64,000 nt of DNA from Escherichia phage 04086: sequence record OR842557; one strand, given 5' to 3'. The notes beneath the pieces were generated by a model, which was not told where the DNA came from, searched no databases, and saw nothing but the letters and a program-made list of their open reading frames with translations. Positions 46,301 through 46,573 of the stretch are shown here, one piece after another (within the stretch, counting starts at the first letter, position 1; each line of letters begins with the position of its first letter). Both the position numbers and the translations under genes were made by a program.

Positions 46301-46573
46301 ATGAAAACTTATCAAGAATTTATCGCTGAATCTATTCTTAATGAGGAAGTAAAAATTAACAAATCTGTTAAGACTATGATTGATGATATAAATCATCTCT
46401 ATAACATCGATTTGACTAATCACGTAACTTTAGGCAATAAGCGAAACTTTTTTGTATTTGATACTTCAGAACTCGACCAGAATCAAATTAACAATATTGA
46501 ACGTTTTGCTAATGAAAAAGGACTGCGTCACGAAACGGCTGGTTATAAAAAGTATGCAATTTATCTAAAATAA
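46301..46573 (+). CDS. Internal protein (IP) with N-terminal capsid targeting sequence, ipI locus
   Basis: N-terminus MKTYQEFIAE is the T4 internal-protein capsid targeting sequence cleaved by gp21 after Glu; 90 aa; directly after 57B as ipI in T4. Confidence 0.65.
   Translation: MKTYQEFIAESILNEEVKINKSVKTMIDDINHLYNIDLTNHVTLGNKRNFFVFDTSELDQNQINNIERFANEKGLRHETAGYKKYAIYLK

Follow-up and report, generated by a model that had tools for sequence, protein, structure and literature searches.

The ip9 gene and its locus

An ORF on the plus strand of Escherichia phage 04086 (OR842557), at 46301..46573, opens with an ATG, runs for 90 codons, and closes with a TAA stop; its N terminus reads MKTYQEFIAESILNEE and its full translation is MKTYQEFIAESILNEEVKINKSVKTMIDDINHLYNIDLTNHVTLGNKRNFFVFDTSELDQNQINNIERFANEKGLRHETAGYKKYAIYLK. 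The window, by which we mean the whole 64-kb stretch of DNA that was analyzed, belongs to a Dhakavirus, i.e., a JS98/IME08-like member of the Tevenvirinae, and the 18 kb around the gene are 91 to 94% identical to Dhakavirus genomes. The genes here follow one another as gp3, gp1 (dNMP kinase), 57A, 57B, ip9, trna.4, trna.3, trna.2, tRNA-Met, and tRNA-Arg. Since T4 has the same 3-1-57A-57B-(IP)-trna.4-trna.3-trna.2-tRNAs order around its internal protein (IP) gene, the ORF occupies the ipI position, as the first-pass annotation of this DNA had claimed. The left boundary of the IP locus is 57B (45768..46223, plus strand), recognized by synteny with T4 and IME08 and by a match to Pfam PF23474 Acb1 (E 1e-58); the strength of this match to the Acb1 (anti-CBASS phosphodiesterase) family means that the IP cassette directly adjoins another counter-defense gene. 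The right boundary is a homolog of trna.4 (46642..46827, plus strand; phrog_1692, E 3e-33), a 61-aa predicted membrane protein which is annotated in IME08, JS10, and T4.

The first 10 residues of the ORF, MKTYQEFIAE (46301..46330, plus strand), constitute a capsid targeting sequence (CTS) that ends in I-A-E, the motif expected for gp21 cleavage. A T4 CTS had been proposed for this N terminus, and the match is indeed exact and closes with I-x-E; however, translation of the T4 RefSeq record reveals that the identical 10 residues are those of T4 IPII and IPIII, whereas the leader of T4 IPI is a different, 19-residue sequence (MKTFKEFTSTTTPVSTITE). In a six-frame regular-expression scan of the 64-kb window, the CTS motif occurred in just two distinct ORFs, 46301..46573 and 48731..49195, which argues that the match did not arise by chance; a third match, at 48522, was set aside as an artefactual duplicate. 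The ribosome-binding site and CTS are shared by both genes at the nucleotide level as well (78% over 40 nt; repeat family D3). I8-A9-E10 is present in our ORF, with I8 and E10 invariant in 16/16 aligned Ip9 sequences, and the whole 10-residue signal is nearly invariant among Ip9 alleles while the linker after it is variable. On these sequence grounds, we infer that gp21 would cleave Ip9 after Glu10. L13-N14-E15 was considered as a second gp21 site and rejected because it is not conserved, most alleles having F-N-E instead. The enzyme expected to cut off the CTS, the prohead core serine protease gp21, is itself encoded in the window (14948..15583, minus strand; Pfam PF03420 Peptidase_S77, E 3e-103), as are the scaffolding core protein gp22 (14102..14917, minus strand; Pfam PF25623 T4_CASP, E 6e-90), into whose core CTS-bearing proteins are recruited in T4 (PMC3012670), the major capsid protein gp23, and the portal gp20.

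The second CTS-bearing ORF (48731..49195, plus strand) lies just past the tRNA genes and encodes 154 aa beginning MKTYNEFLTE, with a mature pI of 9.5. It falls into phrog_2280 ('unknown function'), is found in 511 phage records, and carries the annotation 'hypothetical protein' in every case among the matches listed. By sequence, it appears to be a candidate internal protein, widespread and unrecognized, that is encoded at a third locus.

Short runs of N interrupt the window at nine places (375-377, 2162, 7026, 20069, 20349, 40062, 40323, 45752, and 48638-48640), and the two that were inspected are flanked by exact tandem duplicates, of 98 nt around 45752 (45654-45850) and of 206 nt around 48638-48640 (48432-48846). 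These duplicates look like scaffold-join artefacts; they give rise to a false truncated start of 57B and to a false truncated copy of the second CTS gene (48522..48707). Between genes 2 and 3 lies a 221-aa ORF (43347-44012, plus strand) with an HNH-like motif (ESHHILPRCMGG...EEHYLAH); at the same place ABTNLS3 has an annotated 'homing endonuclease', and IME08 and T4 have none.

The ip9 gene is bracketed by two copies of an early-promoter/stem-loop cassette. The upstream copy, which includes the ribosome-binding site (46224..46300, plus strand), was identified by promoter scan, repeat family D4, and alignment. Its promoter consists of TTTACA-16-TACTAT with a TG before the -10 and extends from 46236 (start of the -35) to 46263 (end of the -10); a 10-bp stem-loop (GGTCTATAGG...ACTATAGACC region, 46243-46268) overlaps the -10, and the predicted RNA fold of this cassette has a free energy of -17.9 kcal/mol (z -4.7). 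The downstream copy (46574..46641, plus strand), recognized by the same three approaches and also serving trna.4, contains TTTACA-17-TACTAT at 46577..46605 and likewise folds into a stem-loop over its -10 (-16.3 kcal/mol, z -2.1). Family D4 has three copies in all, at 46243, 46585, and 49860, the last one weaker and its position approximate; the downstream copy is 84% identical over 38 nt, and the stems of the first two cassettes differ by a compensatory change (GGTC...GACC versus GGGC...GCCC). The cassette can also be aligned with the DNA that precedes T4 ipI and VR5 ip8, and in this alignment the GTTTAC and TGATACTAT blocks are invariant. Because the consensus-only promoter scan found 20 sites in the region versus 17.1 in shuffled sequences, i.e., no enrichment, it is not the scan that speaks for the cassette but its repetition and its conservation upstream of T4 ipI, and on those grounds the earlier claim that the gene has its own early promoter cassette was borne out. 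That the cassette would act as a promoter is suggested by the T4 consensus and by Arbiol et al. (PMC2839356), who, crediting Repoila et al. 1994, describe elements of this kind at both T-even IP loci and propose that they mediate IP gene shuffling. No dedicated late promoter for ip9 was found within 4 kb upstream, the nearest plus-strand TATAAATA being at 42055; for this reason, the supply of the protein during head assembly is an assumption on our part.

The contents of the 57B-trna.4 interval vary among close relatives. It holds Ip9 alone in this window and in ABTNLS3, Ip8 and Ip9 in VR5, three IP genes (a 69-aa CTS ORF, Ip8, and Ip9) in IME08 and IME281, and a different 97-aa CTS protein, with no Ip9, in JS10, so that the hypervariability which had been attributed to the locus is evident even at this short range. 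We conclude that ip9 belongs to a set of internal-protein cassettes that can replace one another at the T-even ipI locus and that variation here comes about via cassette exchange, not via rapid amino-acid change. The 69-aa CTS ORF that precedes ip8 (3496-3705 of the examined IME08 stretch and 680-889 of the examined IME281 stretch) is absent from our window. It is 25% identical to Bas37_0260 of phage KarlGJung, with a pairwise E of 6e-7 that is helped by the common CTS, and its sequence suggests that it may be a distant relative of that protein.

Family identity, constraint, and predicted fold

Database comparisons indicated that the gene is a member of the already known, named Ip9 family and not a new allele. 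It matched phrog_7673 'internal head protein' over residues 1-90 of 90 (E 2e-56), its IME08 ortholog gp133 carries the annotation 'Ip9, similar to RB15 and K3 Ip9', and it is 79% identical to the founding RB15 Ip9 (UniProt Q38376; E 4e-40). Proteins of IME281 (YP_010094276), EcWhh-1, and ABTNLS3, annotated 'internal head protein', are 100% identical to it; the window itself, being identical here to annotated database entries, thus adds nothing new. The first-pass annotation had expected a different mature protein at this locus, and comparison with the known IP alleles qualifies that expectation: the mature sequence is identical to annotated Ip9 and is therefore known by name, but not by function. 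The family is said to have been reported first by Repoila et al. in 1994.

A search of 5.8 billion proteins returned only 15 clusters, all 74 to 96% identical, which include Q38376 (RB15 Ip9), RB33_141, Citrobacter phage Moon, and Salmonella phage KM16, and tblastn placed Ip9 in 199 phage records. Against four relatives, the dN/dS of ip9 was 0 to 0.07, indicating a constrained, functional gene. Ip9 is 72 to 100% identical across genera with different cytosine modifications, which, as far as sequence can tell, fits an inhibitor directed at an enzyme and does not name that enzyme. We are highly confident that ORF 46301..46573 encodes Ip9, a packaged internal protein. In the literature on Ip9, JS98, and Dhakavirus proteomics, we found no experimental work on Ip9, no function for it, and no virion proteomics covering it.

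The predicted mature protein, encoded together with the stop codon by 46331..46573 (plus strand), comprises 80 aa (9.4 kDa) and consists of an approximately 8-residue linker followed by an approximately 70-residue alpha-beta-beta-alpha-beta-beta core. Its pI of 6.8 makes it near-neutral, unlike a basic DNA-condensing protein. AF2 modeling gave a predicted (alpha-beta-beta)x2 fold with pLDDT 80, which offers no clue to function. Searches of Pfam, NCBIfam, and PDB sequences with Ip9 yielded no match, and no enzymatic or binding motif was recognized; a Foldseek comparison of the model with solved structures gave no significant match (all E-values > 0.08). Permuted ferredoxin-like (alpha-beta-beta)x2 domains, such as the periplasmic domains of EpsM/GspL/PilO and the HAD phosphatase cap, have 2 to 14% sequence identity to Ip9; this small fold is a common one, and we draw no conclusion on homology or function from the modeled likeness.

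The Ip9 core beyond T-even phages

A profile search of 1.84 billion representatives identified 19 proteins, which fall into three groups. Members of the first carry a CTS-like leader, and include one divergent copy that a distant T4-like contig carries beside nrdB and rIIA/rIIB. In those of the second, the start codon coincides with the beginning of the core, and a stop lies only a few codons before it, leaving no room for a leader. In the third, the match is to residues 662-734 of an 861-aa phrog_3867 protein, whose relatives are 860-1096-aa hypothetical proteins of Ackermannviridae, with genes located between gp46/47, RegB, and primase. The phrog_3867 segment (e.g., INRMIDIDLTPYVRTPKKRDVVLFDSSELSMNQLNNIERLG) has a clear relationship to the core of Ip9 (domain E-values of 5e-14 to 1e-14 by hmmsearch), and in Escherichia phage ZQ1 the Ip9-like segment spans approximately residues 900-954 of a 1096-aa protein (5392-8682 of the examined stretch). 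The large protein has no Pfam, NCBIfam, or PDB annotation.

With tblastn, CTS-less copies at 47 to 51% identity were found in phages of ~44 kb. A 72-aa CTS-less homolog is present in Escherichia phage SHAK7858, CR01, Klebsiella phage D1, and Kagunavirus BCH953P1. In SHAK7858, the gene (SHAK7858_0056; 4007-4225 of the examined stretch) is mis-annotated as an 'internal head protein'. A rightward run of small genes opens there with three such genes, of which this is the third, beside a divergent regulator-like gene. Escherichia phage OLB35 encodes a 77-aa 'ip7 protein' in which the last ~35 residues of Ip9 are joined to an unrelated, CTS-less N-terminal part; it appears to be either a product of recombination between IP cassettes or the result of a start called wrongly. 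R68, G81, and A86 show little or no variation when the family is aligned, and the N-I-E-R motif of helix 2 is strongly conserved. No homolog joined to a known domain turned up in a profile search that used distant members of the family. As read from these alignments, Ip9 is a composite of the CTS, the ~8-residue linker, and a portable core of ~70 residues.

Proposed role and comparison with characterized internal proteins

The sequence and the analogy with other internal proteins support Ip9 as a candidate injected anti-defense protein. We propose that ip9 would be transcribed from its own T4-type early promoter and, late in infection, probably also by read-through from upstream, and that the 90-aa precursor would be drawn by MKTYQEFIAE into the scaffolding core that gp22 forms in the prohead. 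There, gp21 would cut after Glu10, and an ~80-aa, near-neutral, compact alpha/beta protein would stay in the head. Mature Ip9 would be injected along with the DNA and, in the cytoplasm and before phage gene expression, would bind and block one specific host nuclease, which would be a modification-dependent type IV enzyme of the GmrSD or McrBC kind that attacks the sugar-modified cytosine DNA of the phage. The sequence features behind transcription, recruitment, and cleavage are present in the window. The events themselves, along with injection, are extrapolated from T4 experiments on other internal proteins, and nuclease inhibition by Ip9 is suggested by analogy with them. We regard the whole chain, from packaging via the CTS through gp21 processing and injection to stoichiometric block of one type IV enzyme, as evenly poised between being right and being wrong.

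Several published results bear on the last step. Each of T4 Ip1, Ip2, and Ip3 inhibits a GmrSD enzyme of its own, with no cross-protection (Silas et al. 2025; PMC12373910), and the HIDEN-SEQ preprint reports that Bas37_0260 of KarlGJung is required against McrBC (bioRxiv 10.1101/2025.11.20.689424). All internal proteins with identified targets (4/4) therefore inhibit type IV restriction enzymes (PMC12373910; bioRxiv 10.1101/2025.11.20.689424), which makes the anti-restriction reading of Ip9 stronger than the first-pass annotation could have known. Plasmid-borne IPIII works without its CTS, indicating that it acts in the cytoplasm (Srikant et al. 2022; PMC9391042). Dhakaviruses are predicted to carry an arabinosyl-5-hydroxycytosine pathway (PMC13326640), and modification-dependent nucleases are thus a plausible threat to them. 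As for Ip9 itself, nothing ties it physically to a nuclease, given that the Foldseek comparison yielded no significant match and that there is no sequence similarity to IPI* or, past the CTS, to Bas37_0260.

We considered whether Ip9 is packaged and injected but directed at a first-line defense which is independent of DNA modification; the core would then be a general phage anti-defense module made injectable by fusion to a CTS cassette. The occurrence of the core without a CTS in other types of phage puts real weight on a target other than a modification-dependent enzyme, and its presence both in CTS-less form in ~44-kb phages and inside an Ackermannviridae protein weakens the link to type IV enzymes. 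The CTS-less homologs have no upstream reading frame that could supply a leader, they sit in small early-type gene runs (in metagenomic phage contigs and the ~44-kb phages), the Ip9-like domain of the 861-1096-aa Ackermannviridae protein is encoded in a replication/early region, and the divergent CTS-bearing copy beside nrdB and rIIA/rIIB is at another locus. However, the domain's presence in ~44-kb phages and Ackermannviridae is compatible with a type IV target too, none of the homologs carries a further domain whose function is known, and every one of the four internal proteins with a known target acts on a type IV enzyme. We therefore treat a modification-independent target as a serious but minority possibility. 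The more specific proposal that the core, free-standing in small phages of siphovirus size, part of a ~1000-residue protein in Ackermannviridae, and CTS-tagged in T-even phages, is an unrecognized, widely shuffled phage counter-defense domain with a target other than GmrSD or McrBC we hold only tentatively, and judge slightly less probable still; if true, Ip9 would show how a cytoplasmic early anti-defense gene becomes an injected, pre-made one via capture into the CTS/promoter cassette.

Two further explanations would do away with an injected inhibitor altogether. Ip9 could be packaged to fill the head or to associate with the DNA, serving head structure or ejection without any specific host target, given that it shares its targeting signal with the abundant internal proteins of T4 and has no recognized enzymatic or binding motif. 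This seems improbable to us: the protein is near-neutral (pI 6.8) rather than basic, it is dispensable in close relatives (JS10 has a different IP in its stead), it is under strong purifying selection where the gene is present, and T4 Ip2 and Ip3, which were once considered fillers, proved to be specific inhibitors (PMC12373910). Alternatively, the protein could be made early and act only in the producing cell, the N-terminal motif being a relic of cassette shuffling that brings about no packaging. The only recognizable promoter is indeed early-type, with no late-promoter motif nearby, and elsewhere among phages the core functions as an independent gene; but the 10-residue signal matches that of T4 perfectly and hardly changes among alleles whose linkers vary, and T4 ipI has the same promoter arrangement although its product is packaged and injected (PMC3012670). 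We consider this last explanation the least probable of all, and very unlikely. Injection followed by inhibition of a type IV enzyme is the reading we prefer.

To our knowledge, internal proteins are the only counter-defenses that a T-even phage delivers ready-made, and they would thus decide whether incoming DNA survives the first seconds and, hence, help to set host range. Only four have a known target, against a reported total of more than 30 variants (PMC2839356). Ip9 is among the commonest uncharacterized alleles and occurs in several genera used in phage therapy work; its target, once found, would add a defense/inhibitor pair and help host-range prediction.

Among characterized internal proteins, T4 Ip1 (IPI*, which inhibits the CT596 GmrS/GmrD) has the same genomic position and flanking promoter cassette as Ip9, a similar size, and an N-terminal prohead-targeting leader that likewise ends in Glu. 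The mature proteins differ, as had been surmised from the letters of the window: BLASTP gave no alignment between mature Ip9 and IPI* at E <= 100, and the fold described for IPI*, two beta sheets flanked by terminal helices, seems to differ from the (alpha-beta-beta)x2 predicted for Ip9. T4 Ip2 and Ip3, which inhibit the GmrSD of ECOR21 and ECOR17, have a 10-residue CTS identical to that of Ip9; however, their genes lie at the second IP locus (denV-e), their mature sequences are unrelated to Ip9, and Ip3 is much larger. Bas37_0260 (KarlGJung, MZ501089), which acts against the McrBC of E. coli K-12, is a 77-aa protein with the CTS MKTYQEFIAE, from the ipI locus beside trna.4. We traced its gene to MZ501089, translated it, and rejected identity with Ip9, since the two are similar only in their first 11 residues, i.e., the CTS. 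The closest known system is the Ip9 of RB15/K3 (Q38376), which shares family, 90-aa length, CTS, and locus with the window protein at 79% identity, and members of the family go under the annotation ip9 or 'internal head protein' in many phages, IME08, VR5, and RB32 among them. Ip9 stands alone at the locus in our window, whereas in VR5, IME08, and IME281 it comes after ip8; from RB15/K3 Ip9 nothing essential differs, and the window allele belongs to a Dhakavirus subgroup whose members are 96 to 100% identical to one another.
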